DNA of 64,000 bases from Gemmatimonadales bacterium (GCA_037189525.1 JBBCJC010000001.1:365-64364), one strand, 5' to 3'. Positions 1-51,462 are shown, numbered from the stretch's first letter. Notes: generated by a model from the letters alone, not told the origin. Made by a program: numbers and translations.

Positions 1-75
1 ATAATTCGCGAGGAGGTTGGAATCACGGATTACTCCGAGGATTCCCGCTTTGTCGAGGACATGGGCATCGACTAG
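1..75 (+). CDS. 3' end of a partial ORF, acyl-carrier-protein-like fragment (possibly decayed)
   Basis: Frame 1 reads IIREEVGITDYSEDSRFVEDMGID, then TAG at 73-75. This resembles the segment just before the DSL phosphopantetheine site of ACP/PCP domains, but it stops where the Ser would be. attC-like repeat copy 1 starts 20 nt downstream. Confidence 0.25.
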   Translation: MIREEVGITDYSEDSRFVEDMGID

Positions 76-94
76 CGATTCTCGATCGCGTGTC

Positions 95-234
95 GCCTAA
101 CAAGGTGTTGCAGCGGGCAGGCGCGCGGGGCTCCGGTTTGCCGAGTCGCGGCCGCGCCCCCATGTTAATTGGAGGATGGCGCGGCCGCTCGGCCCCGTGA
201 GCGCGCCTGCCGCTGAACACCAAAGGCGTTGGGC
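95..234 (+). repeat. integron attC-like recombination site, copy 1
   Basis: Starts GCCTAAC (RYYYAAC) and ends GTTGGGC (GTTRRRY). Outer stem CAGCGG(G)CAGGCGCGC pairs with GCGCGCCTGCCGCTG. Inner stem GCGGCCGCGCC pairs with GGCGCGGCCGC (11 bp, perfect) around the loop CCCATGTTAATTGGAGGAT. Confidence 0.7.
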
Positions 235-236
235 CG

Positions 237-666
237 ATGACACTGAAACTATCCCATAGCTGCGCATCGATGATCACGACTATAGTCGTCCTGGCCGCGC
301 TATGTCCGCCCGCGGGCGTTGCACAGACCCCAGCGGATACGGTCGGTCCTCCGCGGCGAGTTGAGGATCTAAGCCGCCCCGGCCCCCCCCCGTCTCCACA
401 TATGGACAACGACGCCCACGGACCAGCCAATTGATCGTGTCCGAGTTGTCCTTCTCGATGGGCCGTTCCGGGTGATTGCCGACTCCGATTCCACGGGAAA
501 CGTTGTGATTGACCCTGTTGCTGCCGGTCGATATGTCCTCCGGGTGCTCGCGATTGGCTATCGCCCGTACACGGATACTATGACCGTGCTCAACGACCGG
601 AAACTCCATATCGTCCTGCCATTAATGTTTCTTCACCTGCCCGGCTTTTGTGCCCGATGTGAGTAA
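237..666 (+). pseudogene. secreted carboxypeptidase-regulatory-like domain protein, apparently frameshifted at a C9 tract (cassette ORF)
   Basis: ORF 237-434 carries a signal-peptide-like segment MITTIVVLAALCPPAGVAQ. The +1 frame, open from 373 to 666, carries VRVVLLDG...ADSDSTGNVVIDPVAAGRYVLRVLAIGYRPYTDTMTV, which resembles the domain in the 8191-8874 protein. The two frames overlap at the run of nine C at 383-391. Removing one C fuses them into a protein of about 142 aa. Confidence 0.5.
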
Positions 667-755
667 CTCGCCACGGTGTAGGGAGTAGCCTGTTCGTATC
701 GGCCGCGCTGGTACGGCCTACTGAGGATCAATGGATGGTGTCGAGCCCCGTCCCG

Positions 756-894
756 GCCTAACAAGGGTTTGCAGCGGGCAGGCGCAGCGGGCTTCCTCTT
801 CCGGAGTCGCGGCCGCGCCCCCATGTTGGTTGAAGGGATGGCGCGGCCGCTCAGCTCCGTGAGCGCCTGCCGCTGAACGCCAGAGTCGTTAGGT
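756..894 (+). repeat. integron attC-like recombination site, copy 2
   Basis: Starts GCCTAAC and ends GTTAGGT. Same nested inverted repeats as copy 1 and the same central CATGTTGGTTGAAGGGATGGCGCGGCCGC. Confidence 0.7.
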
Positions 895-1026
895 GGCCGC
901 GAACATTTCAGCTAAGCGATGATCAACCGTGTCTCGCTCTCGTGCAAAAGACCCACTTACCGCCGCAACCACTACGCTCCTGCTCCCCGCAACCCACCCC
1001 CTAACCTCTGGCCCCTGCGCCCTGCC

Positions 1027-3525
1027 CTACGGCCATGGCAGCGGAATCACCGTAAAGCGCGACCGCTTGGCGGGATCGTCCTGCCCGTCGAAGTGCCGGT
1101 CGATCTCGCGTACGGCGGCACCCCGTAACGCGCGATCGGCGAGGGGGCCGTCGGTCGTCGCCTGCAGGCGACCCCGGAGCGCGTCGAGGTGGAACTCGGC
1201 GACCTGCCGCACGTCCGGGAGCGCACGCTGGTCTCCGGCGCGGTCCAAGAGGGTATTGAGCACGACACGCTGCACCGCGCGGCGCAGGGCCTGCTCGTTC
1301 GGATTGACGGGCGTCGGCGACCCCCACGTGCGATCCACCACCGCGCGCAACACCTCGTCGAGCGTCGGCAGTTGCGGATCCCGGGCGTGGAACAGCACCA
1401 CGCGGGCGAGGCGGTCGCGCTGCAACAGCCCCTCAATCACCTCCGTTGCCAGCCCCCCGGCCAGCGACACCTGGTCGAAGGCCGTGCCCGCCATCCCGAT
1501 CCACGCCAGCGACCCGTCGCCCCCCGGCGGGACCGGCGGGATCATGGCCATCACCCGCTCGGGCACGGCGAGCGCCGCGGGCTCCAGCGCATCGAGCGCC
1601 ATCGTGAGCGCCCGGCGCTGGTCGGCCGCCGGCACCACCTGCGTCGGCACCTGGCCGTCGCCCCGAATGGCATAGCGGAAGTCCATGCCACCGACGTACT
1701 TGATCAGCCCCTCCAGCGAATACCGGTGATGCAGGTACACGTGCGCGAACCGCATGCCGAGGAGGTACATGGGTTCGCCGGGCTTGATCGCGCGGTCGTC
1801 GAACCGATCCATCGCCATCTTGCGCACCGCCGTCGTGCGTTCGACGGCGTCGAACATCGTGCGCCCCTCCACCCAGCGCGTGACTTCCGGAATGGAGCCG
1901 TCGGGCCCGGCGTGCGCGTCGGCCACGAAGCGCAGGCCGCGCCGGAGGCCGTCCTGCACGATCCGCGCGAGCCCCGCCTCCTCCGTGCGCGCGTCGGCAT
2001 ACCACGTATAGCCGTAGCGGATGGCGAGCGAATCCCACCCGCCCGCCATCGGCGCGTAGGCGTTTCGCAGATCCAGATTGCCGCGCGCATCCACCGTGAT
2101 GAGCGGCACCGGGTAGTCCATCACGGACGCCCGGTCCTGCGACGAGGCAATGAAGTTGTGCGAGAGCCCGAGCGTGTGGCCGATCTCGTGGGCCGTGTGC
2201 TGGCGGCGGCGCGCCATCGCAAATGCCTCGGCGCTCACGTTGAGGCCGTTCGGCCCGGCGGCGGGAAGCAGCCCCGCATAGATGTTGTAGTCGATCAACG
2301 AGCGCCAGGAATCCATCCGCACCACCGTCCGGAGAATCTCCCCCGTGCGCGGGTCGGCGAACGACGGACCGACGGACGGGCCCGGACCGTTGCGGTGCAC
2401 CCAGTAAATCATTGAATAACGCGCATCCATCGGGTCGGCGCCGACCGGGAGGTCGCGGACCTGGAACGCGTTCCGGAATCCCGCAGCCTCGAACACCGTG
2501 TTCCACCACATCCCACCCTCGCGGAACGCCGTCTTGTACGGCTCCGGAATGCCGGGATCGAGATAGTACACGATCGGCGTCACCGGCTCCGTGAGCTGGC
2601 CCCGCTGGTAGGCCGCCGGATCGCGCGGCACGAGACGCCAGCGGTTGGCGAACCCGTCGCGGTAGGTGCCGTCGAACCCCTGCGCAAAATCGTTGAATGA
2701 CGTCCCAAAGTACCCGGCGCGCGGATCCGCGCGTCGCGGACGGAACCCTTGTTCGGCGGGGAGTGCCACCAGGGAGTGGTGCACCTCGAACACCGGCGCA
2801 GCCCCGTCGGCGGCAACGCGGCGCAGGGCGAAGCCCGCGTTGTCCACGGCGAACGTCAACACCGCGTGAATCTCCGTGTTCAGCGGAAAGGCCCTGGTGC
2901 GCGCGGTGTCGATCCAGCTCCGTGCCGCGTCCACGCGCGGATTCCCCTGCTGCGACCGCCGGATGGATTCGGCGATCCCATAGGTGTCGGAAAGGAAGAA
3001 GCCCGTCGCATCGACCACGAGCGTGCCGTCCGCCTCGGACTCGATCGGGAACGAGGCGATCACCGACCGGGGGAACGACTCGGCGGCGGCACGCTGCGCG
3101 GCGGCATCGCCTCCCTGGGCGCGCACCCCCCAGTTGTCCCGCACCAGCAGCACGCGACGCCCCTGGCGCTCGAAGCGTACCACGGCGCTCCCTCCGGTCT
3201 GGCCACGGTCGAGACCGAGTTGCCCGTTGCCCGCGCCCGTGGCCAGCACCGACTGATGCAGGAAGTCCCTGCCGAGGCGGTCGGGGGCGATTTCCAACAA
3301 CACCTTGTTGCGGTCCACGTCGACGCGCACCCCCACGAACCTCTCGTCTTGGGTCGTGGACGGGCGGTCCGGCGTGTCCGGACGCGAGATGGCGCGTGCG
3401 TCGGTGCCGGCGAACAGAAGGGCCGCGCCGGCAAGGGCGACGGTCAGCGAGCAATGTGAGAGCATCGGCGATCCCAGGCGAAAGAGGGTTCGAGCGGCGG
3501 TCACGACCACGAACGATGCCGCCAT
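1027..3525 (-). CDS. secreted zinc metalloprotease (HEXXHXXGXXH, metzincin-type signature)
   Basis: A long ORF containing HEIGHTLGLSHNF. The signal-peptide-like N-terminus is MAASFVVVTAARTLFRLGSPMLSHCSLTVALAGAALLFAGTDARA. Start chosen at ATG 3525; ATG 3465 is an alternative. The 998-aa track ORF extends to 4023, but codon-position GC does not support that frame between about 3552 and 3660. Confidence 0.8.
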   Translation of the reverse strand: MAASFVVVTAARTLFRLGSPMLSHCSLTVALAGAALLFAGTDARAISRPDTPDRPSTTQDERFVGVRVDVDRNKVLLEIAPDRLGRDFLHQSVLATGAGNGQLGLDRGQTGGSAVVRFERQGRRVLLVRDNWGVRAQGGDAAAQRAAAESFPRSVIASFPIESEADGTLVVDATGFFLSDTYGIAESIRRSQQGNPRVDAARSWIDTARTRAFPLNTEIHAVLTFAVDNAGFALRRVAADGAAPVFEVHHSLVALPAEQGFRPRRADPRAGYFGTSFNDFAQGFDGTYRDGFANRWRLVPRDPAAYQRGQLTEPVTPIVYYLDPGIPEPYKTAFREGGMWWNTVFEAAGFRNAFQVRDLPVGADPMDARYSMIYWVHRNGPGPSVGPSFADPRTGEILRTVVRMDSWRSLIDYNIYAGLLPAAGPNGLNVSAEAFAMARRRQHTAHEIGHTLGLSHNFIASSQDRASVMDYPVPLITVDARGNLDLRNAYAPMAGGWDSLAIRYGYTWYADARTEEAGLARIVQDGLRRGLRFVADAHAGPDGSIPEVTRWVEGRTMFDAVERTTAVRKMAMDRFDDRAIKPGEPMYLLGMRFAHVYLHHRYSLEGLIKYVGGMDFRYAIRGDGQVPTQVVPAADQRRALTMALDALEPAALAVPERVMAMIPPVPPGGDGSLAWIGMAGTAFDQVSLAGGLATEVIEGLLQRDRLARVVLFHARDPQLPTLDEVLRAVVDRTWGSPTPVNPNEQALRRAVQRVVLNTLLDRAGDQRALPDVRQVAEFHLDALRGRLQATTDGPLADRALRGAAVREIDRHFDGQDDPAKRSRFTVIPLPWP

Positions 3526-3548
3526 CCACGACCGGCGGCATGCCCCCC

Positions 3549-4023
3549 TCAGCCCACGGACATATGCTCCGTGCCGCCGAGGAAGGTCTCCGCCGGGGTC
3601 AGCAACGTGCCGGGCAGCGTGCCAAGCCAGAGCAGCAAGAGCAAGAGCACGAGCATCACGGTCACCGCCCGTTCGCGCAACGCCAGATCCGGCGCCAGCG
3701 ACGGGACGGCCTTCCCGAGGAAGATACGCGACCAACAGCGCGAAGGCCGCGGCGAGGCGCGGGAACGCCTGTACCCGCCCCCCGGGACCGGCGAGAAGGA
3801 CGGGACCGCTGCGCGCCTCGAGCGCGGAGACCATGATTCCCATCCCCCCCATTGCCGCCGCCGTCGTGATCATCACCATCAACGCGGCGGTCGCGTGGCC
3901 CCGCCCCGCCGCGCCGATTGCCGCGAAGATCATCCGCCGTGCATCACGGTGGCGCAGCGATTCGACATCCTGGCCCGCCACAACTGCGTCCGGCCACGAC
4001 GAACGCGCACGCGCTGGCAGCAT
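3549..4023 (-). pseudogene. possible small multi-pass membrane protein, apparently frameshifted
   Basis: The upstream part is in the frame of the 998-aa ORF (MIFAAIGAAG...ALMVMITTAAAMGGMGIMVSAL, AAAFALLVAY). Downstream, another minus frame reads IFLGKAVPSLAPDLALRERAVTVMLVLLLLLLWLGTLPGTLLTPAETFLGGTEHMSVG, with stop TGA at 3551-3549. A hand count of third-position G+C over 3571-3660 is nearly 100% in this second frame and about 47% in the first. Confidence 0.35.
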
Positions 4024-4090
4024 CCGGGCGCATCCTGAGAGCCACTCTCGCTTTCCCCAGGTAGCGCTACGGAGCCACCTGTGATGCGCC

Positions 4091-4227
4091 GGCTAACAAG
4101 GGTTTGCAGCGGGCAGCCGGGCAGACCTCCTCTTCCGAAGTCGCGGCCGCGCTCCCATGTTGGTTAGAGGATGGCGCGGCCGCTCAGTTCCTAGAGCGGC
4201 TGCCGCTGAAACCCAAAGTCGTTAGAA
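4091..4227 (+). repeat. integron attC-like recombination site, copy 3
   Basis: Starts GGCTAAC and ends GTTAGAA (6/7 on both ends). The outer stem CAGCGG(G)CAGCCG pairs with CGGCTGCCGCTG. This is a compensated G:C to C:G change relative to copy 1. Confidence 0.65.
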
Positions 4228-4380
4228 CGCCTCCGAAGCCTCCACCACGTGGCAGAGCACGATCTCCTACTGCCGGATTGCCGGCGCACTGAAACTTCCT
4301 CCATCGCGTAGCCGTATGAAACACCGATCAATTCTTGCGCTCCAGTTGCGACCTGTCCTGATCCGGGGAGTGGGTGTCCG

Positions 4381-5166
4381 ATGTCCCAATACCGTTCGAC
4401 AATCCTCTTCGGGCTCGCCTGCTGTGGGGTGCTATTCTCCGCGAATGTTGACCCTGAATCCGATAAACTAGCTGCGGCCGTCCGGGCGAAGGATGCCCAG
4501 TTCTGGAACGCCTATAATGCGTGTGACTTGACACGAATCCACGAGTTTTTCGCGTCGGATGTCGAGTTCTATCACGACAAGGGCGGTCCTACGATCGGTC
4601 GCGACGCCCTGATCGAGACATTCAAGGTCAACTTGTGTGGCAGCAGGGGCTCACGCCTGCGGCGAGTGGTCGTTCCCGAGACGGAAGCAATCTTCCCGCT
4701 GCGCAAAGGGAACGAGCTCTACGGTGCTATTCTGTCCGGTGAACATCTGTTTTACGTCTCGGAGCCGGGGAAAAAGGAGTATCTGGATGGACGCGCCAAC
4801 TTCACCCATCTGTGGTTGAAGCAGGGCGGCGAACTCAGAATGACACGTATCCTGAGCTTCCACCATCGACCCGCGGTCGAGTCGGTCGGACCGCAAGAGA
4901 TCGTACTGTCGCAACACGAGCTTGAGCAGGTCGCTGGCACGTACCGTTCGCCCCAGTTCGGGCGGGTGACGGTCACTCGAGCAGACGGTCATCTTGTGCT
5001 CCAGACTGAGCGGGGGCAGCTCCTTCTCTATCCGCGGACCCCCCACCTGTTCTTCGTCAAGGAGCGCGATCTCACCTTCGAGTTTCAGACTCAGAGTGGC
5101 AAATCTCTCGCGATGATCGTGCGGGAGCGGGGCACCGTCGTCGATACGGTTCCACGCGAGCAGTAA
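4381..5166 (+). CDS. secreted NTF2-like (SnoaL/DUF4440-like) protein with DUF3471-like C-terminal domain (cassette ORF)
   Basis: 261-aa ORF with GGGGAG 10 nt upstream of the ATG. N-terminal hydrophobic segment ILFGLACCGVLFSA. DAQFWNAYNACDL...FYHDKGG fits NTF2-like folds. The C-terminal VAGTYRSPQFGRVTVTRADGHLVLQ resembles the C-terminal modules of the 35103-37079 protein. Confidence 0.7.
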   Translation: MSQYRSTILFGLACCGVLFSANVDPESDKLAAAVRAKDAQFWNAYNACDLTRIHEFFASDVEFYHDKGGPTIGRDALIETFKVNLCGSRGSRLRRVVVPETEAIFPLRKGNELYGAILSGEHLFYVSEPGKKEYLDGRANFTHLWLKQGGELRMTRILSFHHRPAVESVGPQEIVLSQHELEQVAGTYRSPQFGRVTVTRADGHLVLQTERGQLLLYPRTPHLFFVKERDLTFEFQTQSGKSLAMIVRERGTVVDTVPREQ

Positions 5167-5242
5167 CGTCGACCTAGCTCCGCATCTGCAGCAGCTATGC
5201 GTCTCGACCGGGGAAGTGGTTCGAGTATCACTGAGCCCGGCG

Positions 5243-5379
5243 TTCTAACAAGGTGTTGCAGCGGGCAGGCGCGCGAGGTGCCGATTTGCGGCGTCGCGGC
5301 CGCGCCCCCATGTTGATCGGAGGATGCGCGGCCACTCGGCTCCGTGAGCGCCTGCCGCTGAATACCAGAGTCGATATGC
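5243..5379 (+). repeat. integron attC-like recombination site, copy 4 (degenerate ends)
   Basis: Starts TTCTAAC (6/7) and ends GATATGC (degenerate R'). The internal sequence is near-identical to copy 1. The inner stem carries a 1-nt deletion and one mismatch. Confidence 0.55.
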
Positions 5380-5485
5380 TGCGCCCCAGACTTCATATTA
5401 TGTTGGCTACCCGTTGGGCCTTCTGCTAGGACAGCAGAACTGAAGGTTGGGCTGGATCTTGGAACCATTCTTCAGGAGTATCTCC

Positions 5486-6958
5486 GTGCGATCGTGGCAA
5501 ACCCTTGCATTCCTTATTGCCATCGCGGCATGCGCAAGCGAGAGCGCGGTTGCGCCACCACCGGCTCCTCCACCACCGATATCCCCGCCGCCACCTCCTG
5601 CGAACCCCGCTCCTTCGCTCGTAGACATTAGTCCAACGAGTCGTCTACTTGGAGATACTGCGTTCACCTTGACTGCGACTGGAACGAACTTTGTTCAGGG
5701 TTCTGAGATATACTGGGGAGGCGTTACGACGCCAACCATCTATGTCTCGTCGACAGAACTCAGGGCGCAGATTGCTGCGTCAGCTTTAACGATTGCGGGC
5801 TCAGTGGGTGTGACGGTTGTAAGCCAACCTCCCGGAGGAGGTACGTCCGAACCTCGAGCTTTTACCGTCCTCGCAGCACCGCCAGGGTTGCACATTCTTT
5901 CGGGTACAGAGCAAGCAGTCCAGCCGGGAGTAGAGTACCCAGTTCTCCTCGAGGTCGTCCTCCGAGATGCGGACGGATGGCCTGCCCCTGACGTCGCCGT
6001 ACGATATCAGGGACCTGGAGCGTCGACGTGGTCTAGCTCGGGAGGGTGGCCACCGCGGACTGATTCGTTGGGACGAGTGGCTGTTCGATGGCAGGCTCCC
6101 ACCGATGGAACGAAGGACTTCATCGTAACCGCGATCGTCGAAGGCGCTGAAGGATTTTCTCCGAGCACAGTTCAGTTTTCCCTGTCAGTCCTTCCGGTAA
6201 CGTCACCAACCGGCTTGAGGATCGTTGCCGGCAACAACCAGGCGGTCCTTCCAGGTGAGGTCTATCCGATCTTGCTCCAAACCGAGCTCAGAGATGCGGC
6301 GGGAGTACCAGCGGCCAACATCACTGTTCGGTATCAAGGCTTGGGACTGGGCTCCTGGGAGGGGGAGAGTGGCTGGCCACCACGCACAGACTCGCAGGGC
6401 AGAGTAGCCGTTCGATGGTCTGCTCCCAGCGACGGCACAAGTGATTTTACCGTAACCGCCTTGGTCGAAGGCGCTACGGGATTTTCACCGAGTACAGCTC
6501 AGTTTTCACTTTCGGTTCTCCCGATCACGCCGCAGCCTGGCTTGAGGATCATTGCCGGCAATAATCAGATGGCTCTATCGGGTGAGACCTATCAGACCTT
6601 GCTCGTGACGGAACTCCGGGATGCAGCAGGTGTACCCGCCGCCAACGTCATTGTCCGATATCAAGGTCCAGGAACTGGCGCTTGGGTTGGGGGGAGCGGC
6701 TGGCCGCCGCGCACGGATTCACAGGGAAGAGTGGCCGTTCAATGGTGGGCTCCCACTGATGGAGCAGTAAGCTTTGTCGTTACCGCAACAGTCGAAGGGG
6801 CTGAGGGGTTCTCCCCCAGTTCGGCGGAGTTCCCCTTGCTGGTCGGGGTGCCGGGTTCTTCAAGCACTCCGACGCGAGCCCCAGCTACTGCCGAATCGGA
6901 TGTCAAGACCTCCTCGATAGACAAGAACCGGAGCATGCGCAGCATAACAAGGTATTAG
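5486..6958 (+). CDS. lipoprotein with IPT/TIG-like domain and three tandem 109-aa Ig-like repeats (cassette ORF)
   Basis: GTG at 5486 lies 7 nt after AGGAG (5474-5478). Lipobox-like LIAIAAC. A Pro-rich linker is followed by SPTSRLLGDTAFTLTATGTNF (IPT/TIG-like) and then 3 x 109-aa repeats. The track ORF begins at TTG 5447. Confidence 0.75.
   Translation: MRSWQTLAFLIAIAACASESAVAPPPAPPPPISPPPPPANPAPSLVDISPTSRLLGDTAFTLTATGTNFVQGSEIYWGGVTTPTIYVSSTELRAQIAASALTIAGSVGVTVVSQPPGGGTSEPRAFTVLAAPPGLHILSGTEQAVQPGVEYPVLLEVVLRDADGWPAPDVAVRYQGPGASTWSSSGGWPPRTDSLGRVAVRWQAPTDGTKDFIVTAIVEGAEGFSPSTVQFSLSVLPVTSPTGLRIVAGNNQAVLPGEVYPILLQTELRDAAGVPAANITVRYQGLGLGSWEGESGWPPRTDSQGRVAVRWSAPSDGTSDFTVTALVEGATGFSPSTAQFSLSVLPITPQPGLRIIAGNNQMALSGETYQTLLVTELRDAAGVPAANVIVRYQGPGTGAWVGGSGWPPRTDSQGRVAVQWWAPTDGAVSFVVTATVEGAEGFSPSSAEFPLLVGVPGSSSTPTRAPATAESDVKTSSIDKNRSMRSITRY
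5885..6865 (+). repeat. tandem in-frame coding repeat, 3 x 327 bp
   Basis: Units start at 5885 (GLHILSGTEQ), 6212 (GLRIVAGNNQ) and 6539 (GLRIIAGNNQ). Each contains RYQG.G...GWPPRTDS.GRVAV.W.AP.DG...F.VTA.VEGA.GFSPS. Confidence 0.85.
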
Positions 6959-6973
6959 ACCGCGACAGAGACA

Positions 6974-7717
6974 ATGGACTCGCGAACAGTTAACCGAGAA
7001 CTCCGAGCCGCGATCCGTCCGGTTCTACAGGTCCACGGATTTGTGGCATTCACCGAACGGACTGCGTGGCGATACCGGCCCGGGCGCATTGATGTGGCCA
7101 ACTTCCAGTCGTTCAACGACTATCTAGCCGGCGGGATCGGGTGTACCACGTACTCCTTCGCCCTGAATCTCGGGTCGTACCTTACTTGTGTGCCTGATGA
7201 CGACCAGCCTATCAAACACCGCCGTGGCCAACTCGCACCACAAGAGTTTGAGTGCCATCTGCGTTGCCATCCACACCGCACGATCTCTCAGTCGGAGCTT
7301 GGCCGCACGGATATCTGGTACGTTGACCCCGCTGGCGGCTATCTGTCAGACGTTATTCGCGACGCGCGGAAAGTACTCCTTGAGGTCGGCCTTCCCTGGT
7401 TTGACGAGGTTAGCGATGATGCCGCCCTGCTGGCCGATCTCAAGACACGCGACCGGTCCTCACCGGGGTCGACAGTGTTCCCGGGTGGTATCGGCTCGCC
7501 GGTGCGTGATCGAGTTGTCGGATACCTGAGCTGGGCTCTCGGTGACACGGCGGGGGCACTCGCGCACCTTAACCGGGCACTCATGCGTCGGCGGGCATCG
7601 GCAGCCACACTCGTCAGTCCGCGCTCGAAATGGCGACCGCCGCCGATGGCCAAGCTCGAGTCGGATGTTCAACGGCTACGCGAACTCCACCCGGACGCGG
7701 CCCAAGATCAAGTTTGA
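6974..7717 (+). CDS. hypothetical protein, DUF4304-like N-terminus
   Basis: 247-aa ORF. ELRAAIRPVLQVHGFVAFTERTAWRYRPGRIDVANFQS matches the DUF4304 pattern from memory. It starts 15 nt after the previous ORF, with no attC between them. Confidence 0.6.
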   Translation: MDSRTVNRELRAAIRPVLQVHGFVAFTERTAWRYRPGRIDVANFQSFNDYLAGGIGCTTYSFALNLGSYLTCVPDDDQPIKHRRGQLAPQEFECHLRCHPHRTISQSELGRTDIWYVDPAGGYLSDVIRDARKVLLEVGLPWFDEVSDDAALLADLKTRDRSSPGSTVFPGGIGSPVRDRVVGYLSWALGDTAGALAHLNRALMRRRASAATLVSPRSKWRPPPMAKLESDVQRLRELHPDAAQDQV

Positions 7718-7733
7718 AGTGCAACACTGACGC

Positions 7734-7990
7734 TTACCGCGCATAGCATTCCTCCGGGGTGTGATAGCCGAGCCGCTTGCGCGGCCGGCTGTTGGGCGAT
7801 CCGGTCACAGGCCCGCTGGGTCAGGTGCGCCATGCTCTGGCCCTTCGGGAGGTATTGGCGGAGCAAGCCGTTCGTGATTCTCGTTGGTGAAGCCGCTTTT
7901 CCGCTCCACCAGGGTGACGACACAGGGATCATCCGTGCCGCTTTCCTGCTGGCCGCAGGCCGCGGTACCCTGGTAGCTAGAGGCTGAGTC
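7734..7990 (-). mobile_element. IS30-family transposase remnant (C-terminal part, multiple frameshifts and an internal deletion)
   Basis: The minus strand reads TNEN-(+1 nt)-TNGLLRQYLPKGQSMAHLTQRACDRIAQQ, then in another frame LNSRPRKRLGYHTPEECYAR, with stop at 7736-7734. NENTNGLLRQY.PKG and LN.RPRK.LG..TP are hallmark IS30 DDE C-terminal motifs. An upstream LVERKSGF is fused abnormally close. No inverted repeats were identified. Confidence 0.7.
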
Positions 7991-8039
7991 GTCAGCGCAC
8001 GCATTGCACGGTGCCGATGGTGAGTATTGCGTAACTGCC

Positions 8040-8177
8040 GTCTAACAGGGTGTTGCAGCGGGCAGGCGCGCGGGGCTCTATTTGCGAAGTCGCGGCTGCG
8101 CCTTCATGTTTGGTTGGAGGATGGCGCAGCCGCTTAGCTCCTAGAGCGGCCGCTGCTGAAACTCAGAGTCGTTGGGC
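8040..8177 (+). repeat. integron attC-like recombination site, copy 5
   Basis: Starts GTCTAAC and ends GTTGGGC. The inner stem GCGGCTGCGCC pairs with GGCGCAGCCGC (perfect 11 bp), carrying a compensated C>T / G>A pair relative to copy 1. Confidence 0.7.
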
Positions 8178-8190
8178 GGACCGACATACA

Positions 8191-8874
8191 ATGCTGATCC
8201 GATTAGGTGTCATCTTCTCCCTGGGAATAGGGGCTGCTTGCTCCCCAAAGGGCGAGCAAGCCAAGCCGGTTCCGTCCCCACATCCCTTCACGGGCTCCGT
8301 CGTGAGCGGACAGGTGGTGGATTCAATCGGCAACCCGTTACCTGGCGTTCGCGTCACTCTCCTGGCACGATCCGGGATTTCTCGCGATCGGCGGACTGAT
8401 TGGCGAGGCGGCTTTCGGTTTGATTCCCTCGCTAGCGGGAAGTATACGCTGACTCTGAGGGCAATCGGCTATCACCGTCAATCGGATTCCATTACCCTCG
8501 GTCCCGCCGATCAGTGGTCGCAAACCTGGCCCCTTCAGATGATCCATTTTGATCTGGAGTACATCTGCACTCTTGAGGTTCGTCCCGCCGTCATTGTTGA
8601 TGTTCGCGATGCCGCAACTGGACAGAATCTGACGCCGACGGCTCGCACGTATGCAATATGGCAGGATGAATCTTCTCCGCGTTGGCCTGCGAGCGCCCCC
8701 CTGGAGCCGCCGTCTGAAGACATGACGGGGAGCGGTGGGCGAGCGGGCCGGTACCGCGTCTCCGTTGTACGGGCCGGCTACCACCCCTGGTTTGCGGACG
8801 TCGATGTACAGCGGGATGCTTGCCACGCAGTACCGTTCCGCGTCACAGCCCTGCTAACCGCAATTAAGGACTAG
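8191..8874 (+). CDS. lipoprotein with carboxypeptidase-regulatory-like domain (cassette ORF)
   Basis: ATG at 8191 gives MLIRLGVIFSLGIGAAC (lipobox). GQVVDSIGNPLPGVRVTLL...DWRGGFRFDSLASGKYTLTLRAIGY fits the CarboxypepD_reg fold pattern. The track ORF start at 8050 lies inside the attC repeat and is rejected. Confidence 0.75.
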   Translation: MLIRLGVIFSLGIGAACSPKGEQAKPVPSPHPFTGSVVSGQVVDSIGNPLPGVRVTLLARSGISRDRRTDWRGGFRFDSLASGKYTLTLRAIGYHRQSDSITLGPADQWSQTWPLQMIHFDLEYICTLEVRPAVIVDVRDAATGQNLTPTARTYAIWQDESSPRWPASAPLEPPSEDMTGSGGRAGRYRVSVVRAGYHPWFADVDVQRDACHAVPFRVTALLTAIKD

Positions 8875-8879
8875 CGGCC

Positions 8880-9018
8880 GCCCAACAGGGGTTTGCAGCG
8901 GGCAGCCGCACGGGTCTCCTCTTCCGGAGTCGCGGCCGCGCCCCCATGTTGGTGGGAGGATGGCGCGGCCGCTTGGCTCCGTGAGCGCGCTTGCCACTGA
9001 AACCCAACGGCGTTAGGC
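8880..9018 (+). repeat. integron attC-like recombination site, copy 6
   Basis: Starts GCCCAAC, 5 nt after the stop codon of the previous ORF, and ends GTTAGGC. Inner stem GCGGCCGCGCC pairs with GGCGCGGCCGC. Confidence 0.7.
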
Positions 9019-9028
9019 CGCATCAGAC

Positions 9029-9724
9029 ATGTTTCCTTCGATAGAGCATCGCGAAGTCCAAACAGCCGCAAAAGCTGTACTCGCGGACCTGGCGGCCTCC
9101 ATCCAGCCTCGTGACACCGAGCGCACCATTGTTGAACGGGCAGCGTCGCTGCTCGCGGCGCATGGACTCACGGAAACCTGGTACTACGACTGCCCTGCAC
9201 TTGTTCTGTTAGGTTCTCGCAGTTGCGTGTCACTGTCTGGCAAGGACTACTGGCCCAACGACGACCCGGTCGGTCACTTCAATGTGGTGACCGTTGACCT
9301 CAGTCCCATGCGTCGTGGTCTCTGGGGCGACTGCGCCAGAACCTTCCCAATCGAGAACGGACGCGTCACGTTCGAACCACTCGTCGACGAGTTCCGAGTT
9401 GGCCTGGAAGCTCAAGCACTACTTCATCATTCGATGCAGGACTTTGTCACCCCAACAACCACGTTTGGCGAACTGTTCTCCTTCAGCAATGCCCAGATCG
9501 CTCGCCTCGGCTTCGAGAATCTGGATTTCCTCGGGAATCTCGGCCACAGCATCGCCTCAACGCGTGGCGAACGATGCTACATTCAGGTCGGAAACGATTT
9601 GGCGTTGGGTGCAGTCCCGTTTTTCACATTCGAACCCCACGTCCGCCAAGTCAATGGACGATGGGGCTTCAAGCACGAAGAGATCTACTACTTCGCCTCG
9701 GATCGCAAGCTATCTGTACTCTAG
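9029..9724 (+). CDS. M24-family (creatinase/aminopeptidase fold) metallopeptidase-like protein (cassette ORF)
   Basis: 231-aa ORF. VTVDLSPMRRGLWGDCARTF, LGHSIA, FTFEPH and HEEIYYF align by eye with the Asp/Asp/His/Glu/Glu metal-ligand blocks of the pita-bread fold. The ATG lies 10 nt after attC copy 6. Confidence 0.65.
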   Translation: MFPSIEHREVQTAAKAVLADLAASIQPRDTERTIVERAASLLAAHGLTETWYYDCPALVLLGSRSCVSLSGKDYWPNDDPVGHFNVVTVDLSPMRRGLWGDCARTFPIENGRVTFEPLVDEFRVGLEAQALLHHSMQDFVTPTTTFGELFSFSNAQIARLGFENLDFLGNLGHSIASTRGERCYIQVGNDLALGAVPFFTFEPHVRQVNGRWGFKHEEIYYFASDRKLSVL

Positions 9725-9798
9725 CTCGCTGCCTCCTTGCCGAGATAGCACCGTCTCTTAGGAAGGTGCCTGCTCCAGGTTTGACTCCGGGTGCCGTT

Positions 9799-9937
9799 CG
9801 TTGACCCAGCGCGGCCTAGCGGGGCAGGCGTGCGCAGTTCCGGTTCACGAAGCCGCGGACGCGCCCCATATTGGTTGGAGGATGGCGCGGCCGCTCAGTT
9901 TCGTGACGACCGCCGCTGAAACCCAGAATCGTTAACT
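9799..9937 (+). repeat. integron attC-like recombination site, copy 7 (degenerate 5' end)
   Basis: The central and 3' parts match the consensus: AGCCGCGGACGCGCCCCATATTGGTTGGAGGATGGCGCGGCCGC...CGCCGCTGAAACCCAGAATC. It ends GTTAACT (5/7). The RYYYAAC box is not recognisable. Confidence 0.5.
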
Positions 9938-9952
9938 GGCACAACCGTACGT

Positions 9953-10693
9953 ATGCGCTGGCGTGATTACTTCGGTGTGATAGCTGGCATGTTTTTCTTT
10001 GGCTGGCTACGGACAGCTTGGTCCTCCAGTACCGGCATTGCCGCCGCGGTATTTGTCGCCATCGTTGCTATCGGTACCGTTATCCAGCGCGTTGTGCGCC
10101 GCCGTCGATTCCGAAAGCTGGCTGAGCTTGGTGACGAGGCGTTGCGAGTCGCAGTCGAGGCGCTGCCGGCGGCGGATGCGGCGCTCGGCCGAATGACCTT
10201 CGGGATAACCTTCGAGCCAGACCACCAAGGGCGGTTTCTCGGAACACGGACGTTTCCCTACCGTGCGGGGTCCCAATCCCTCAACACGTACTTCTTTTGG
10301 GTCTGTCTTGCTCTCTCCGTTCTGATGGCCTATCCAGTCGTGCTGGGCCGGGTGGAGGAGCCCGGCCAAATGCTTCCCTGGATCATCCTCGCCGGAATCA
10401 CGTTGCTGGCCGGCTTTGGTTACCGACTGCTGGGTCGGGAGATGAGCGCACAGGTGGTATTGAGCCCACGAGGGATCAGTATCGTAGGAGCCGAACTTGG
10501 AACTCGGTCGCTCGACTGGCTTGAGATCAAAACGTTCCGATGGCTTCGTGCACCAGGCGACCTATATCGCGGGATCGAGTTGTACTCTGGAACCGGGCAT
10601 CACCTACTACTGGACACCGAGATCCCGGACTACGATGAGATTATCGAGCAAGTCATTGGCCGATTGGTGTCGATACACCGTGCCACCGAATAA
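9953..10693 (+). CDS. hypothetical membrane protein (cassette ORF)
   Basis: 246-aa ORF with at least 4 hydrophobic segments: VIAGMFFFGWL, AAAVFVAIVAIGTVI, YFFWVCLALSVLMAYPVVL and WIILAGITLLAGFGY. The ATG lies 15 nt after attC copy 7. The stop TAA overlaps the start of copy 8. Confidence 0.65.
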   Translation: MRWRDYFGVIAGMFFFGWLRTAWSSSTGIAAAVFVAIVAIGTVIQRVVRRRRFRKLAELGDEALRVAVEALPAADAALGRMTFGITFEPDHQGRFLGTRTFPYRAGSQSLNTYFFWVCLALSVLMAYPVVLGRVEEPGQMLPWIILAGITLLAGFGYRLLGREMSAQVVLSPRGISIVGAELGTRSLDWLEIKTFRWLRAPGDLYRGIELYSGTGHHLLLDTEIPDYDEIIEQVIGRLVSIHRATE

Positions 10694-10811
10694 GGTGCGC
10701 AGCGGGCAGACGCGCGGGGCGCCGGTTTGCGGAGTCGCGACCGCGCCTCCATGTTGATTGGAGGCTGCCGGCTCCGCAAGTGCCTACTGCTTGACACCAG
10801 AGTCATTAGGC
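10685..10811 (+). repeat. integron attC-like recombination site, copy 8 (decayed)
   Basis: The left half matches the consensus: AAGGTGCGCAGCGGGCAGACGCGCGGGG...GTCGCGACCGCGCCTCCATGTTGATTGGAGG. The right inner arm is lost. It ends ATTAGGC (6/7). Confidence 0.5.
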
Positions 10812-11292
10812 CGCAACCGATCTCCTGTCGAGGGACGAATGGATACAGCCACTGAGGATGGTTCCAGCGGATATGAGGCAGTCGCGACATCTACATTGCG
10901 GGACGAGGTACCCGTTCCCGCGTCGGCGATTCGATCGGTGCCGTGGCCGTTAAGGCCTGGGCAAACGCTTTTCCTGACCGGGCGTCGGTCGCAATTCCCT
11001 CGGCGAGGACACCTATAAGCGATTGCTGCGCGATACGGGTCTGGCGTGGGTCGCCGACGCCAAGGACGAGGGCGAGAACTACTATTATTTTGCCGAAAAG
11101 GTGTAGGTCGGATTTCGAACGGACAGGTAAAACCCGGCCGAACCAACCTCCGGTACCTGCGCTGCATCGTCACGAGGCACCGCTGGAAACGTCAGCGCGG
11201 TTCGAGTTCGCCGTATTCGCAGAGCTCGCTCTCGCGGCCGAGCGCGAGCAGTTCCCCATGAAGCTTGACTACTAAAGTTCCTACTGGGTGCA

Positions 11293-11322
11293 GCCCAACA
11301 AGGTGCCGCGGCGGGCAGGGGA
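11293..11322 (+). repeat. truncated attC-like site, copy 9 (R''/L'' arm only)
   Basis: GCCCAACAAGGTGCCGCGGCGGGCAGGGG matches the first ~30 nt of the repeat consensus, and then similarity stops. The stop codon of the convergent gene lies 13 nt further on. Confidence 0.5.
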
Positions 11323-11334
11323 CGGATCACAGTT

Positions 11335-12504
11335 CTATCGACGAGTGACCTCCACGATACGCTGCGATTCGCCGTCATCGGTACCTACTCCCATTCGAAC
11401 AATACTACCTGCCGGGCCGCGAATCATTTCCATGACTCGACTCAACGGCATGCCTTCGATAACAATACCGTTGACCGAATAGATGATGAGGCCGGCAACC
11501 AGGCCGACACGCTCGGCCTCGCCACCCGGAATCACCGAGGCAATCCGGAACAGTCCGGACTCGGCCACCGCCTCGACATTGATTCCGACCAATCCAAACC
11601 CCTCCTTGATACAGTCGACCTTGCTGACATCGTCAGGGGAGGTCCAACGGAAGCCGGGCGCACATTGCCAGGTTCCCTCTTTGCCGCCATGCATCATGTC
11701 CGCCCGGAACGGATGCGGGAAGCCAGGCACCCATTGCCGCGGCGCCACGCCGACCGCGTCACTCTCGATCTGGAAATCGTAGATGATAGCGTCCAGGCAG
11801 GTGGCCGGATCGTCGATGCGCGGCGCGCCAGTCAATTCCAGCGTCTGCGGCGTGACACCGGGAGCTCTGCTGTCATCGAATGTCAGAGAAAATGTCGTCG
11901 GCGCCACCGCCCAGTACATGTCCGCCTGGCCAGGATCCACCGTTCGGACTTCACTTTTCCCGCCCCAGGACAGCCTGTAGCCAATCGGCAGCGTGGTGGG
12001 GTTGCTGACGCAGACAACGGCCAGTTCAGGGCGACGGCCGGACGATACCCTTCCCCGCGCCGGAGCCCCCCCTTTCGCCCCGGTATAGGCACGATTCAGC
12101 TCACCGAGCAGCGCGCCGAGGTCGGACATGGTCTGCCCGGGTTTGAAGAGGGTTCCGCTGTTACGTCCCCATCGAAGATTTTGTACCTTCCCATTTCGGA
12201 CCTCGATGACGAGCTCGGTCCAAAGCCGGCCTTCCAGAAAGCTGGTCCCATGTAACGTCAGCGCTGCATCATAGCCGCCCGAGGTTCGAACGATATTGCT
12301 TACGGCGACCCGTTCGTATTTGGCCGACGGCCACGCAAAAAAGAACAGCATCTCGCCCACGCTGTGGATGAAGCCACGGGCGTGCGAGTCGTCGGACGAT
12401 TGCTGGCCCCACGCAACGGTAAAGGGCACAACCGAAAGACTGAACAGCACCGCGAAGCAATGCGACCATCGTCGGGTCATTCGGGCCGGCAACCAGGCAA
12501 CCAT
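11335..12504 (-). CDS. secreted protein with C-terminal PDZ domain
   Basis: C-terminal GLFRIASVIPGGEAERVGLVAGLIIYSVNGIVIEGMPLSRVMEMIRGPAGSIV is PDZ-like. Signal-like MTRRWSHCFAVLFSLSVVPFTVAWG. Start taken at ATG 12504; ATG 12480 is an alternative. The track start 12642 overlaps the upstream regulator. Confidence 0.7.
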   Translation of the reverse strand: MVAWLPARMTRRWSHCFAVLFSLSVVPFTVAWGQQSSDDSHARGFIHSVGEMLFFFAWPSAKYERVAVSNIVRTSGGYDAALTLHGTSFLEGRLWTELVIEVRNGKVQNLRWGRNSGTLFKPGQTMSDLGALLGELNRAYTGAKGGAPARGRVSSGRRPELAVVCVSNPTTLPIGYRLSWGGKSEVRTVDPGQADMYWAVAPTTFSLTFDDSRAPGVTPQTLELTGAPRIDDPATCLDAIIYDFQIESDAVGVAPRQWVPGFPHPFRADMMHGGKEGTWQCAPGFRWTSPDDVSKVDCIKEGFGLVGINVEAVAESGLFRIASVIPGGEAERVGLVAGLIIYSVNGIVIEGMPLSRVMEMIRGPAGSIVRMGVGTDDGESQRIVEVTRR

Positions 12505-12538
12505 GATTTGTCGATCCCCAAAGAACGAACATGACAGG

Positions 12539-13195
12539 TTAGATGAGGCGCTCCCGCAGCGCTTTGGCCACTGCCCCGCCTCGGGATCTGACTTGCAGTT
12601 TTGCATAGATGTTCCGGAGGTGGGTGTCGACAGTATGGGCACTCAATCCCAGCTTGTCGGCAATCTGTTTCTGGGACAGCGCATCGACGACACATTGGAG
12701 CACCTCCCGCTCGCGCGCCGTCAATCCATACTCCTGATTGATCGGCGGACCCTGGACAAAGCCGTCGAGGACCTTGCGGGCAATGGCCGGGTTCATCGGC
12801 GAGCCGCCATCCATGGCGGCTCGTATGGCCGACACGATCTCGGCGCCGGTGGCCGACTTGAGGAGATAGCCGATCGCGCCGGCACGAAGCGCGTCGAAGA
12901 CGCGATCATCTTCATCGTGTACCGAGAGAACGATCGTGCGCACCGTGGGAGCCTGGGTACGGAGGCGCCGAATCCCGTCGACCCCGCTCATTCCCGGCAG
13001 CCCAAGATCCATCAGCACGACATTCGGAAGCGGGTCACGACCGAGTGCGTCCAACAGCTCCTCGCCGGTGGACGCAGCCAGGGCACACTTCACTCCGGGC
13101 TCCCGATCGAGCAGTTCGACAAGTGCTTTACGAAACCGGCCGTGATCCTCGACGAGCCAAACCACAACCGTCTCCGGCAATAGACCTTGATTCAC
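12539..13195 (-). CDS. NarL/LuxR-family response regulator (REC + LuxR-type HTH)
   Basis: VWLVEDH...VVLMDLGLPGMSG is a receiver domain. LTAREREVLQCVVDALSQKQIADKLGLSAHTVDTHLRNIYAKL is a LuxR HTH. GTG start with GAGGAGA upstream. Confidence 0.9.
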   Translation of the reverse strand: MNQGLLPETVVVWLVEDHGRFRKALVELLDREPGVKCALAASTGEELLDALGRDPLPNVVLMDLGLPGMSGVDGIRRLRTQAPTVRTIVLSVHDEDDRVFDALRAGAIGYLLKSATGAEIVSAIRAAMDGGSPMNPAIARKVLDGFVQGPPINQEYGLTAREREVLQCVVDALSQKQIADKLGLSAHTVDTHLRNIYAKLQVRSRGGAVAKALRERLI

Positions 13196-13247
13196 GAGAC
13201 TCTCCTCAGCTCGGCTGGATGTTGTCTCATCGGCGGGGCGCTGTCTA

Positions 13248-13264
13248 TCCCGTGTTTACGTGAT
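13248..13264. promoter_or_regulatory. 17-nt motif TCCCGTGTTTACGTGAT, candidate operator upstream of the response-regulator gene
   Basis: It recurs with one mismatch at 16399-16415. It contains the direct half-sites (C/A)CGTG-TTT-ACGTG. It lies 53-69 nt upstream of the regulator GTG and overlaps the kinase stop codon. Confidence 0.3.
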
Positions 13265-16200: not shown

Positions 16201-16402
16201 GTCGGACATGCACGTCGGCGAGCGAAGGAAGCGGCGACTGCGCGTTCGCCGTCCCGCCACTCAGCAGGGACGCGAGGAGACATTGCCGAGCCACGAGCGC
16301 CAGCCGAGTCACCGGGACCAGGCGCTGGTGGTTGGCATCTCGGATGGCCGGTTCATGGAACGCAAATATGGCACCCCGGTCAAACAGGTCTCCAGTCCTC
16401 AC
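13256..16402 (-). CDS. sensor histidine kinase with periplasmic beta-propeller/Y_Y_Y region, HisKA_3 and HATPase domains
   Basis: Repeated propeller-like W.GT..GL motifs. YRYRLDGYDDDWVDA...YTNLSPGEYVFRV is Y_Y_Y. TM segment WWFRTLVVLGIMGLGFAAY. RIAADLHDDIGANLSAI is the HisKA_3 H-box. DDGVGF...GYGLPNMRRRAQELGG is the ATPase. The GTG at 16402 has no room for an RBS, so the start is uncertain. Confidence 0.85.
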   Translation of the reverse strand: MRTGDLFDRGAIFAFHEPAIRDANHQRLVPVTRLALVARQCLLASLLSGGTANAQSPLPSLADVHVRRFGVEAGLPVRHITFLAQTADGYLYVGGQGLHRFNGHRFNAVPLQGLRSTIIDAMYHDRADRIWLRTAGNELAYFRNGRLRVLGDLRAPMREFTETADGSIWLGGFHGLAWIAPGADSIAYLTTADGLPSDSVGGVFDVGTERVAVTFVGIAAVFADSVASSGIRFGRLTPGQLGFTTPGYNVRADLNELWVRDDPNRPPLRYRAGKLARVHSETAVPLPGTDLRAPRAATLLSVSLGSAVPSARGDNSFPVGYSLDAGIQGADGQRWVSLRSERGRSNEIIRIRGEQAERILLQRHLRFSEVTAILGDREGSVWVGTDQGLLQLVPRHVFVLGAEQGLSTSLTTAVLQSRDGAVWVGTWGGGVYRFANGRLTAHLNRARGLPHDNVRSLYEARDGSLWVGMYKGYARLVGSRIVDRGNLSGEIRAIVEELDGTIWMAGNQTVATYRGGVVREDGKHPLAARQTWAMRRSADGTVWAGTDRGLYRIRDGVTAQIDSALGVTTGLIQMIQETADGSLWFGSYDQGLYRYRDGRFVSITTREGLHENGIWAMVEDGLGSVWLSSDRGICRTALTRLVAVADDEMSSQPTGKRIECAVFSEHDGLPSQEGNRASPAAWRMSDGRLLFNNQEGIVVIEPVGLRTMGEGVRTLVETVTADGDTLVSEDAGPFLIPPGTRQIGLDYAALSFLMPTQMRYRYRLDGYDDDWVDAQDRRRASYTNLSPGEYVFRVVSQGGTAEDETAEGRVVIRVQPTVVQSWWFRTLVVLGIMGLGFAAYRYRVNRLLEIERVRLRIAADLHDDIGANLSAIALMTEMLEHASPGAGPRSDHLSRIREAASETSASLRDTIWLVDPRHGDLRQLTRRMRDIAARQLPGVQVHFSGDLAGIDRQVGMAFMRQVLLLFKEMLHNVAKHAVARQVHVDVQVLGGQMVLTVVDDGVGFDEGSASPGYGLPNMRRRAQELGGGVQVSSATGRGTRVVLTLPIT

Positions 16403-22607: not shown

Positions 22608-22787
22608 TGAGCATGCAGCCAAAGATGCGAGATTCCGGCTCCGGCGTCGCGACCGCGCCCGCGCCCGCGTGATAACCAAGGATCGCCCGACGTCCTGGCT
22701 CCCAATCTGCCGCCACAGAGAGGCAAGACCTCGGGTGCCCCAAAGCGACCAACACTCATCATTTCGCCGGCGACCGCATCTTCGGAC

Positions 22788-25058: not shown

Positions 25059-25205
25059 TCCTACAAGCGACTCTGGATAAAGGCTGGCGCGGGCGCTCGG
25101 ATTCCTAGCCGCGGCCGCAATCAAATACGGTTGGCTTCTGAGAGCTTGTTTACCCACTGACTTCTCAATACGTTTGGAGGCCAAACAATACCCGGACCTC
25201 CCGAA

Positions 25206-43701: not shown

Positions 43702-43743
43702 GCCCGGCCTAACGACCGCATGAAGCGGAGCGTTAGGCCGGGC
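43702..43743 (+). terminator. strong stem-loop downstream of the small membrane-protein gene
   Basis: GCCCGGCCTAACG (43702-43714) pairs perfectly with CGTTAGGCCGGGC (43731-43743) around a 16-nt loop. There is no T-tract. The arms contain GCCTAAC/GTTAGGC. Confidence 0.5.
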
Positions 43744-51337: not shown

Positions 51338-51462
51338 GGGAGTCCGGGCGTTGGGATCGCTGCGTCCCGACCACCCTGCACGGGACCATGATCGAGACCA
51401 CAATGGTATACTACGAATCCGGGTGATCCGCAACGCAGGTGTCGTCCCGCCCCCGAAACGCC

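Follow-up and report, generated by a model that had tools for sequence, protein, structure and literature searches.

A very probable integron gene-cassette array with long, near-identical attC sites on a Gemmatimonas-like chromosome

We analysed a 64,000-nt stretch of DNA (hereafter the window) from a Gemmatimonadales bacterium (GCA_037189525.1, JBBCJC010000001.1:365-64364), for which an earlier reading of the sequence alone (the initial annotation) had proposed an integron-type gene-cassette array built on repeats resembling attC recombination sites. We consider it very likely that positions 1–11319 are the promoter-distal end of such an array on a Gemmatimonas-like chromosome, because of the structure and polarity of the repeats, their recognition by a covariance model trained on class 1 integron sites, and the linkage of the same repeat family to an integron integrase gene (intI) and its attI site in related genomes; the proposed interpretation was supported in tests of model recognition, distribution, integrase linkage and polarity. 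Whether the array is the distal part of a chromosomal integron or a cluster of attC sites lacking an integrase (CALIN) is more finely balanced, and we give the former about an even chance. The window contains neither intI nor attI and therefore this segment alone cannot be filed as a complete integron.

Results

A family of attC-like repeats in one orientation

A direct-repeat search over positions 1–14000, together with a covariance model of the family (R1) built from the eight window copies, delimited eight full attC-like copies of 127–140 nt, all on the + strand between positions 95 and 11319, with R1 scores of 94–150 bits (E = 1e-20 to 1e-34). They are listed here with their terminal boxes and with their scores under R1 and under a second covariance model, R3, which was made from 13 full-length class 1 attCs and no Gemmatimonas sequence, stands in for the IntegronFinder model and was run over the whole window with filters off.

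attC c1, 95–234, + strand: R'' GCCTAAC, R' GTTGGGC, cut point between G228 and T229; R1 143.9 bits; R3 30.2 bits, E = 4.5e-6; DNA fold z = −6.1; L-box pairs 9/9
attC c2, 756–894, + strand: GCCTAAC ... GTTAGGT; R1 149.7 bits; R3 19.4 bits, E = 0.005
attC c3, 4091–4227, + strand: GGCTAAC ... GTTAGAA; R1 136 bits; R3 19.6 bits, E = 0.005
attC c4, 5243–5379, + strand: TTCTAAC ... GATATGC; R1 134.9 bits; R3 15.4 bits, E = 0.07
attC c5, 8040–8177, + strand: GTCTAAC ... GTTGGGC; R1 130.7 bits; R3 23.4 bits, E = 4e-4
attC c6, 8880–9018, + strand: GCCCAAC ... GTTAGGC; R1 136.4 bits; R3 12.6 bits, E = 0.47
attC c7, 9804–9937, + strand: ACCCAGC ... GTTAACT, 5' end degenerate; R1 99.7 bits; missed by R3; L-box pairs 5/9
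attC c8, 10685–10811, + strand: degenerate, ACCGAAT ... ATTAGGC, with a 10-nt internal deletion; R1 94.3 bits; missed by R3
attC remnant c9, 11288–11319, + strand: GCCCAACAAGGTGCCGCGGCGGGCAGG; the R''–L'' arm alone is left

The positions and the single orientation given in the initial annotation were borne out by both searches for the eight full copies and by the direct-repeat search for the c9 fragment, with c7 now placed at 9804–9937 and c9 at 11288–11319. The start-to-start spacings of the copies, which are also the spacings of their 3' boxes, are 660, 3333, 1152, 2798, 841, 919 and 874 nt, in exact agreement with the segment lengths proposed there. Remnant c9 is identical to the consensus at 23 of 27 bases and matches the 5' arm at 81%; its alignment diverges after about 30 nt and it reaches only 6 bits under the full model. 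On the right the array ends with this stub, which is separated by 16 nt from the stop codon of a gene for a PDZ-domain protein, and on the other side the array continues past the left window edge (position 1).

No further comparable copy was found by R1 or by a search with the left-arm 13-mer in the other 52.7 kb of the window (11.4–64 kb); the 13-mer occurs eight times within 95–11319, against 3.5 occurrences expected for the whole window. The genome-wide scatter in both orientations that is typical of repetitive extragenic palindromes (REP) or miniature inverted-repeat transposable elements (MITE), named in the initial annotation as a finding that would refute it, was not seen in the window or in a related metagenome-assembled genome (MAG), in both of which the repeat is confined to single-orientation arrays.

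Anatomy and polarity of the sites

Published attC sites have R boxes of the form RYYYAAC/GTTRRRY, a spacer of usually 5–6 nt and an L box in which position 16 is extrahelical; a 6-bp stem separates this base from the last extrahelical one, at position 23/24, and the total length is 57–141 nt (PMC5027507), a range that contains all eight window copies. As a reference set, 16 class 1 integron attCs from seven clinical plasmids were measured by the same script as the window copies. A layout of a 7-nt R'' box, a 5-nt spacer, 3 bp, a bulge at position 16 and 6 bp fits all 16 of them, and c1–c6 share it, with bulges at 16 and 23, 6 bp between the two and 8–9 of nine L-box pairs formed; their 5'-arm spacer is 5 nt, as in canonical sites, and their L boxes (GTT[G]CAGC / GCTGAAC) are those of the dfrA17 attC. 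The 7-mer boxes quoted in the initial annotation are present, as is the asymmetric arm that it described (TGTT[G]CAGCGG[G]CAGG versus CCTGCCGCTGAACA), but its consensus of RYYYAAC and GTTRRRY is not strict, being broken in c3 (GGCTAAC), at the end of c4 (GATATGC), in c7 (ACCCAGC) and in c8 (AAT...ATT).

The AAC and GTT triplets are both intact in five of the eight copies (c1, c2, c3, c5 and c6), with both 7-mers perfect in four, and are mutated in c4 (GAT for GTT), c7 (AGC) and c8 (AAT/ATT). Judged by sequence, c1, c2, c3, c5 and c6 look competent, and c4, c7, c8 and the c9 stub look decayed; c4 is probably inactive because its GTT cleavage triplet has become GAT. At the inner R-box pair of c8, T-A has taken the place of C-G, a compensatory change at two bases of one and the same cassette that preserves the pairing and removes the cleavage triplet.

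On the + strand, both extrahelical bases are in the 5' arm, and they appear as single-base bulges on the 3' arm of the minus-strand fold; + is therefore the top strand and minus the recombined bottom strand, and intI and attI are expected on the left. The folding of both strands suggested in the initial annotation thus gave bulges on one arm, with a polarity that agrees with the layout in relatives described below. At the two bulges, 28 and 27, respectively, of 29 family members have a top-strand G, which corresponds to C on the recombined strand. We considered and rejected the idea that a bulged C on the recombined strand is unusual, as the estX, cmlA1 and dfrA17 attCs also have a top-strand G at position 16.

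For seven of the eight copies, folding as single-stranded DNA gives greater stability than in shuffled controls (z = −2.5 to −6.1). In the minus-strand fold, the 7-nt terminal box is followed by an internal loop, then by the long stem that bears the two bulges, and last by an inner GC-rich stem-loop (GCGGCCGCGC) that is nearly invariant across genomes.

Covariation and recognition by a class 1-trained model

The 29 family members came from the window, the Gemmatimonas MAG and JGI metagenome contigs, and covariation was counted in an alignment fitted to the model. In this alignment 91.8% of cells are paired and the AAC/GTT columns are paired in 25–27 of 28 informative sequences. Compensatory change occurs in 14 pairs, compared with 6.7 ± 1.4 in shuffles (none of 500 reaching 14) and 2–6 in slid controls, and the paired changes are concentrated in two places, the R box and the L-box end of the stem.

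R3 recognized six of the eight copies (c1, c5, c3, c2, c4 and c6, at 30.2 to 12.6 bits), always on the + strand and with their ends placed exactly, which answers, with a stand-in, the covariance-model check put forward in the initial annotation. Sites c1, c5, c3 and c2 are the four best matches in the window, and four copies reach E < 0.01 and six of eight E < 1. R3 also recovers class 1 attCs on which it was not trained (psp, qacL and one from a gcu cassette); in the relatives introduced below it finds nine of the 11 attCs of locus L019, the single site of L003 and five sites of the more distant L017. A mini-attC model, R2, in which a GAAA loop connects the arms of 16 class 1 attCs, matched none of the copies; most likely its 50 positions are too few for a site of 137 nt, and we give this failure no weight, the longer R3, trained on long attCs, having recognized the sites. 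No Rfam family matched any part of the window; to our knowledge Rfam contains no attC family.

A candidate hidden attC inside cassette 4 (7532–7664; 10 bits, E = 0.8) was rejected because its sequence is not attC-like. Elsewhere in the window, an intergenic palindrome at 43707–43738, GCCTAAC-N18-GTTAGGC with an extended stem (CCCGGCCTAACG...CGTTAGGCCGGG), has perfect attC-like R boxes and is far too short for an attC; under R2 and R3 it gives E = 0.2–1.5, on both strands.

Integrase and attI beside the same repeats in relatives

No tyrosine recombinase was detected in the window, either by tblastn with three IntI proteins (best E = 0.04) or among about 40 ORFs (open reading frames) searched against Pfam (no Phage_integrase), as the initial annotation had stated. 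A 435-aa ORF beside the array end was considered as an integrase and rejected, since by Pfam it is the PDZ protein. A search with the repeat pattern found one genome in a species-representative collection, that of the uncultured Gemmatimonas MAG, on five contigs, and also seven metagenome contigs; MAG and metagenome copies all lie in single-orientation arrays with a spacing of 0.6–1.8 kb.

In MAG locus L003, a gene for a 337-aa tyrosine recombinase precedes the repeat and one cassette on the same strand. With 386 bits, the protein exceeds the cut-off of 265 for TIGR02249 'integron integrase', and it can be aligned over its full length with VchIntIA (PDB 2A3V; E = 7e-77), the IntI-specific insertion included; as we read that alignment, it has the catalytic R, K, HxxR, H and Y motifs. 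On a 4.4-Mb contig (L019), an IntI 89% identical to that of L003 is followed by at least 11 family attCs on the same strand within 10 kb, and in L017 an IntI that is 72% identical stands in the same layout, with a variant of attI and more diverse attCs of 75–129 nt. An intI homologue, whose absence from the genome and from related genomes would have refuted the initial annotation by its own terms, therefore exists in related genomes above the TIGR02249 cut-off and adjoins arrays of the same repeat.

In L003, L019 and L017, intI points towards the cassettes and shares its strand with the attC top strands and with most cassette ORFs. A Peptidase_M1 gene lies on the other side of intI in L003, L019 and L025, and this fixed position of intI next to Peptidase_M1 is thus as expected of a sedentary chromosomal integron. 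About 80 nt past the intI stop codon are conserved in eight loci, ending in ...CCATACACTAGTTAG (GTTAG), and the attI motif of the relatives is CAGGTCCATACAnnAGTTAG; beyond the conserved end, the loci diverge into at least three unrelated first cassettes. Because the divergence falls at one conserved position between G and TT, we interpret it as the footprint of attI × attC insertion.

Five other MAG arrays (L001, L002, L004, L005 and L006) have no intI in the locus examined. Another relative has integron integrase fragments only, of 82 aa and 164 aa (P0129 and P0131; cluster of P0001), which suggests that intI has been pseudogenized in that lineage. The intI-linked arrays L019 (11949–20937) and L017 (11081–20302) include toxin–antitoxin cassettes (ParE/Unstab_antitox; BrnT/BrnA) and genes for a TIR_2 protein, a REase-ARP protein and a large N6_N4 methyltransferase, and an IS110 transposase lies inside the L017 array.

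Cassettes and their genes

The units between the cut points, and the partial cassette that precedes them, are as follows.

Preceding cassette, 3' end, 1–94, + strand: cut by the window edge; ORF ending in ...IIREEVGITDYSEDSRFVEDMGID and a stop codon at position 75
Cassette 1, 229–888 (660 nt), + strand: signal peptide and CarboxypepD_reg/PEGA domain, in two frames (237–434 and 472–666)
Cassette 2, 889–4221 (3333 nt): 998-aa ORF on the minus strand, 1027–4023, Met-zincin DUF4953 and DUF5117 (Pfam)
Cassette 3, 4222–5373 (1152 nt), + strand: ORF 4381–5166, DUF4440/SnoaL and DUF3471 (Pfam)
Cassette 4, 5374–8171 (2798 nt), + strand: ORFs 5447–6958 (Big_1/TIG Ig-like repeats) and 6974–7717 (weak DUF4304) (Pfam)
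Transposase remnant in cassette 4, about 7730–7930, minus strand: frameshifted and internally deleted; 85% identical to metagenome contig L009 (34–233)
Cassette 5, 8172–9012 (841 nt), + strand: CarboxypepD_reg ORF ending at 8874, its listed start (8050) inside c5 (Pfam)
Cassette 6, 9013–9931 (919 nt), + strand: ORF 9029–9724, Peptidase_M24-like (Pfam; Logan gene call)
Cassette 7, 9932–10805 (874 nt), + strand: ORF 9953–10693, 246 aa, no Pfam match
Last unit, 10806–11292 (about 490 nt), + strand: sole ORF doubtful, 110 aa, 10943–11275, no Pfam match

The initial annotation gave most segments one ORF in the direction of the repeat; ORFs are on the + strand in seven of the eight units, and the sole ORF of cassette 2 (1027–4023) is on the minus strand. 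Cassette 2 also has a G+C content of 68–72%, compared with about 60% in the other cassettes. In cassette 1 the ORF is split at a run of nine C's (about 381–390), which may reflect either a pseudogene or an assembly indel. The remnant in cassette 4, which we take from its motifs alone to be an insertion sequence (IS) transposase of the IS30 family, has pieces in three different frames (...VVTLVERKSGF..., ...NGLLRQYLPKG... and ...RPRKRLGYHTPEECYAR, the last ending at a stop codon). A promoter scan found no match to sigma-70-like promoters on the + strand of the array, which is weak evidence, and a terminator scan found none on the + strand.

The cassette 3 ORF is also present on a Logan contig of 1077 nt whose ends fall within the flanking attCs, and the Logan contigs of run SRR27999909 that carry window proteins are short and broken at every attC. 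Neither a look-up of the exact 998-aa protein of cassette 2 nor a scan of a metagenome collection for an exact 48-mer gave a match. No cassette is common to the window and its relatives. Cassette products are mostly secreted or periplasmic (peptidases, Ig-like and carboxypeptidase-regulatory domains), with no resistance genes. Decay is evident at the right end of the array, in the degenerate attCs c4, c7 and c8, the c9 stub and the IS30-like remnant, and this combination fits an old, distal region.

Weighing the alternatives

Several observations weigh against an integron array. No intI, attI or Pc lies within the 64-kb window, so that integrase linkage is seen in relatives only, and the covariation counts rest on an alignment fitted to the model. 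R3 misses the degenerate c7 and c8, recovers c4 and c6 only at E = 0.07–0.5, and gives an off-target match at 44897–44977 (minus strand, 18 bits, E = 0.013). The L'–R' spacer is 9 nt (10 in c8) rather than the usual 5–6, with 2–3 nt that can pair with the 5' spacer; fold energies of the top and bottom strands are about equal; and GC skew of the top strand is slightly positive, whereas in mobile-integron attCs it is the bottom strand that is purine-rich. Among the cassettes, that of the zincin carries its ORF reversed, and those of 3333 and 2798 nt exceed the roughly 2 kb quoted as the largest known (PMC4889954). The off-target match, which is single, lies outside the repeat family and sits inside a Ser/Thr protein kinase gene (44558–45937), is probably due to chance.

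A separate question is whether the array is contiguous with an integrase. In IntegronFinder, a CALIN is a cluster of two or more attC sites that share a strand, have gaps below 4 kb and have no neighbouring intI (PMC4889954), and the average CALIN has about 5–6 attCs (PMC4889954; IntegronFinder 2 preprint). The window array resembles this category in its clustering (largest gap 3333 nt) and in having no intI in the 52.7 kb to its right, and differs from it in being larger (at least eight sites) and in having a left-side neighbourhood that extends beyond the window. That it is a CALIN, having arisen through rearrangement, through loss of intI or through an IntI acting in trans at a secondary site, is in our judgement nearly as probable as not; it may even be a decaying relic in which cassette exchange has ended. 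Consistent with this are the missing intI in 64 kb, the degraded right end, the same-family MAG arrays without intI in their loci, which exist besides an intI-linked one, and the relative that retains intI fragments only, as well as the fact that none of the best 120 of 8000 IntI homologues is on the window's own contig. However, those homologues are only the best 120 of 8000, with a single entry per protein, under its longest contig; five of the attCs are intact; the array runs past the left edge, where intI could adjoin; and polarity places intI on the left, as in L003, L019 and L017. Two readings that dispense with recombination are far less probable. Intergenic palindromes of the REP/MITE kind, unrelated to integrons and acting as gene separators and perhaps as terminators or mRNA stabilizers, would agree with repeats that are indeed G+C-rich imperfect palindromes between genes, fold about equally well on both strands and match nothing in Rfam; yet the repeats keep one orientation per array and are absent from the other 52.7 kb, occur in the MAG solely in arrays at cassette-scale spacing, in three genome lineages follow directly on an integron integrase gene and a conserved attI, are recognized strand-specifically by a model of class 1 sites only and coincide with no terminator in the + strand scan, so that we regard this reading as largely refuted and very improbable. 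A structured RNA, such as a riboregulator or a site at which a long polycistronic transcript is processed, would account for conserved structure with covariation and for the nearly invariant inner stem-loop, but no Rfam family corresponds to it, the covarying parts are the attC R and L boxes at canonical positions, the junction variation between G and TT beside intI is a signature of DNA recombination, and whole-length conservation of attCs is normal in sedentary integrons (PMC4889954); we consider it extremely improbable.

It is unlikely, in our view, that Gemmatimonas-type integrons form a functionally distinct, as yet uncharacterized subclass of which the window array is a CALIN maintained in trans. 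Such a subclass could be marked by intI co-transcribed with the cassettes and by attCs of about 137 nt with a 9-nt L'–R' spacer and bulged C/C on the recombined strand; its invariant inner stem-loop could have a second role, for example as an insulator or a host-factor binding site, and it could carry cassettes above 3 kb, including reversed, self-expressed genes. We favour an integron cassette array of the ordinary kind, a known system in which the 9-nt spacer, the oversize cassettes and the one reversed ORF are minor deviations.

Proposed mechanism

The steps of the following scheme are taken from the established integron mechanism. Each unit of the array would comprise one gene or a small gene group plus its attC of 127–140 nt, with all top strands on +. 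The minus (bottom) strand of each attC is predicted to fold into a hairpin in which the R box carries the 5'-AAC-3' cleavage triplet, followed by an unpaired spacer, the L box and two extrahelical bases (16 and 23) opposite the triplet arm with a 6-bp stem between them. An IntI encoded outside the window would bind this hairpin and cut between G and TT; attC × attC recombination would then excise a cassette as a circle, and attC × attI recombination would reinsert it beside intI, where it would be transcribed. Cassettes far from attI would probably be a silent stock, with the exception of genes that have their own promoter, possibly including the reversed zincin. By analogy with known integrons, we infer that this genome has an active IntI and that its cassettes still move.

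Comparison with known systems

Sedentary chromosomal integrons, such as the Vibrio cholerae superintegron with its V. cholerae repeats (VCR) and those of Xanthomonas, are the closest parallel: they too are chromosomal multi-cassette arrays with long (about 130 nt), near-identical attCs, their cassette content is wholly different between related strains, and intI is at a fixed position, as in the relatives studied here. The initial annotation had taken high similarity among attC copies as a trait of this group, in which whole-length conservation of attCs is normal (PMC4889954). Differences are that the host belongs to the Gemmatimonadota and not the Gammaproteobacteria, that intI of the relatives is transcribed towards the cassettes and not away from them, and that the window array is short (eight units) with no integrase in view. 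An atypical intI orientation, towards attI, is known from Treponema integrons (PMC3607928), and the T. denticola type likewise has intI, attC top strands and most ORFs on one strand, as in L003, L019 and L017; the phylum is different, the window itself is without intI, and the likeness is one of layout only. Gemmatimonadota are among the phyla with recorded integrons (PMC8618304).

Individual sites are most like the long class 1 attCs (dfrA17, dfrA7 and blaIMP; 131–133 nt), with which they share box layout, bulges at 16 and 23, length and near-identical L boxes (GTT[G]CAGC ... GCTGAAC in dfrA17), and from which they are recognized across systems by R3; the top-strand G at position 16 also occurs in the class 1 estX and cmlA1 attCs. 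Unlike the long class 1 sites, those of the window have an unrelated central part and an L'–R' spacer of 9 nt instead of 5–6; unlike aadA-type class 1 sites, in which the second bulged base is A, they have a top-strand G there; and, whereas mobile-integron attCs are heterogeneous, the window sites are near-identical.

Flanking genes and other features of the window

To the right of the array, and outside it, the genes are of an ordinary chromosomal kind and begin with the following.

11335–12504, minus strand: PDZ-domain protein (Pfam)
12539–13195: GerE response regulator
13256–16402: Y_Y_Y/HisKA_3 histidine kinase

The relatives contain no close orthologues of the PDZ protein and the histidine kinase, the next-best matches being 42% and 45% identical. 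Farther on, a low-G+C island at 21603–27131 (54–57%, compared with about 65%) looks, from its gene content, like an acquired anti-phage defence island.

22788–25058: Mrr_cat and nSTAND3 NTPase
25206–26000: FRG-domain protein
26001–27131: GmrSD_N/DUF262 protein

Three paralogous genes for S15 X-Pro dipeptidyl-peptidases lie within 10 kb (49496–51433, 54725–56479 and 58103–59935), and two MacB/FtsX permease genes (18837–21293 and 51463–54210) adjoin S15 peptidase paralogues. A DUF5916 gene at 61036–63681 has 84% DNA identity to a Gemmatimonas MAG gene (L005, 3–1451). Since an attC array, with no integrase in the locus examined, lies a few kb downstream of that MAG orthologue, a second array might be present just beyond position 64000.

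Significance

These results establish no new principle and leave the current picture of integron function unchanged. For a phylum in which integrons have been listed and barely described, they document a cassette array and define its attC family well, and the relatives provide a clean natural example of differing first cassettes at one conserved attI. With the attC model, the attI sequence and the cognate IntI from relatives, Gemmatimonas-type cassettes would become recognizable in soil and water metagenomes.

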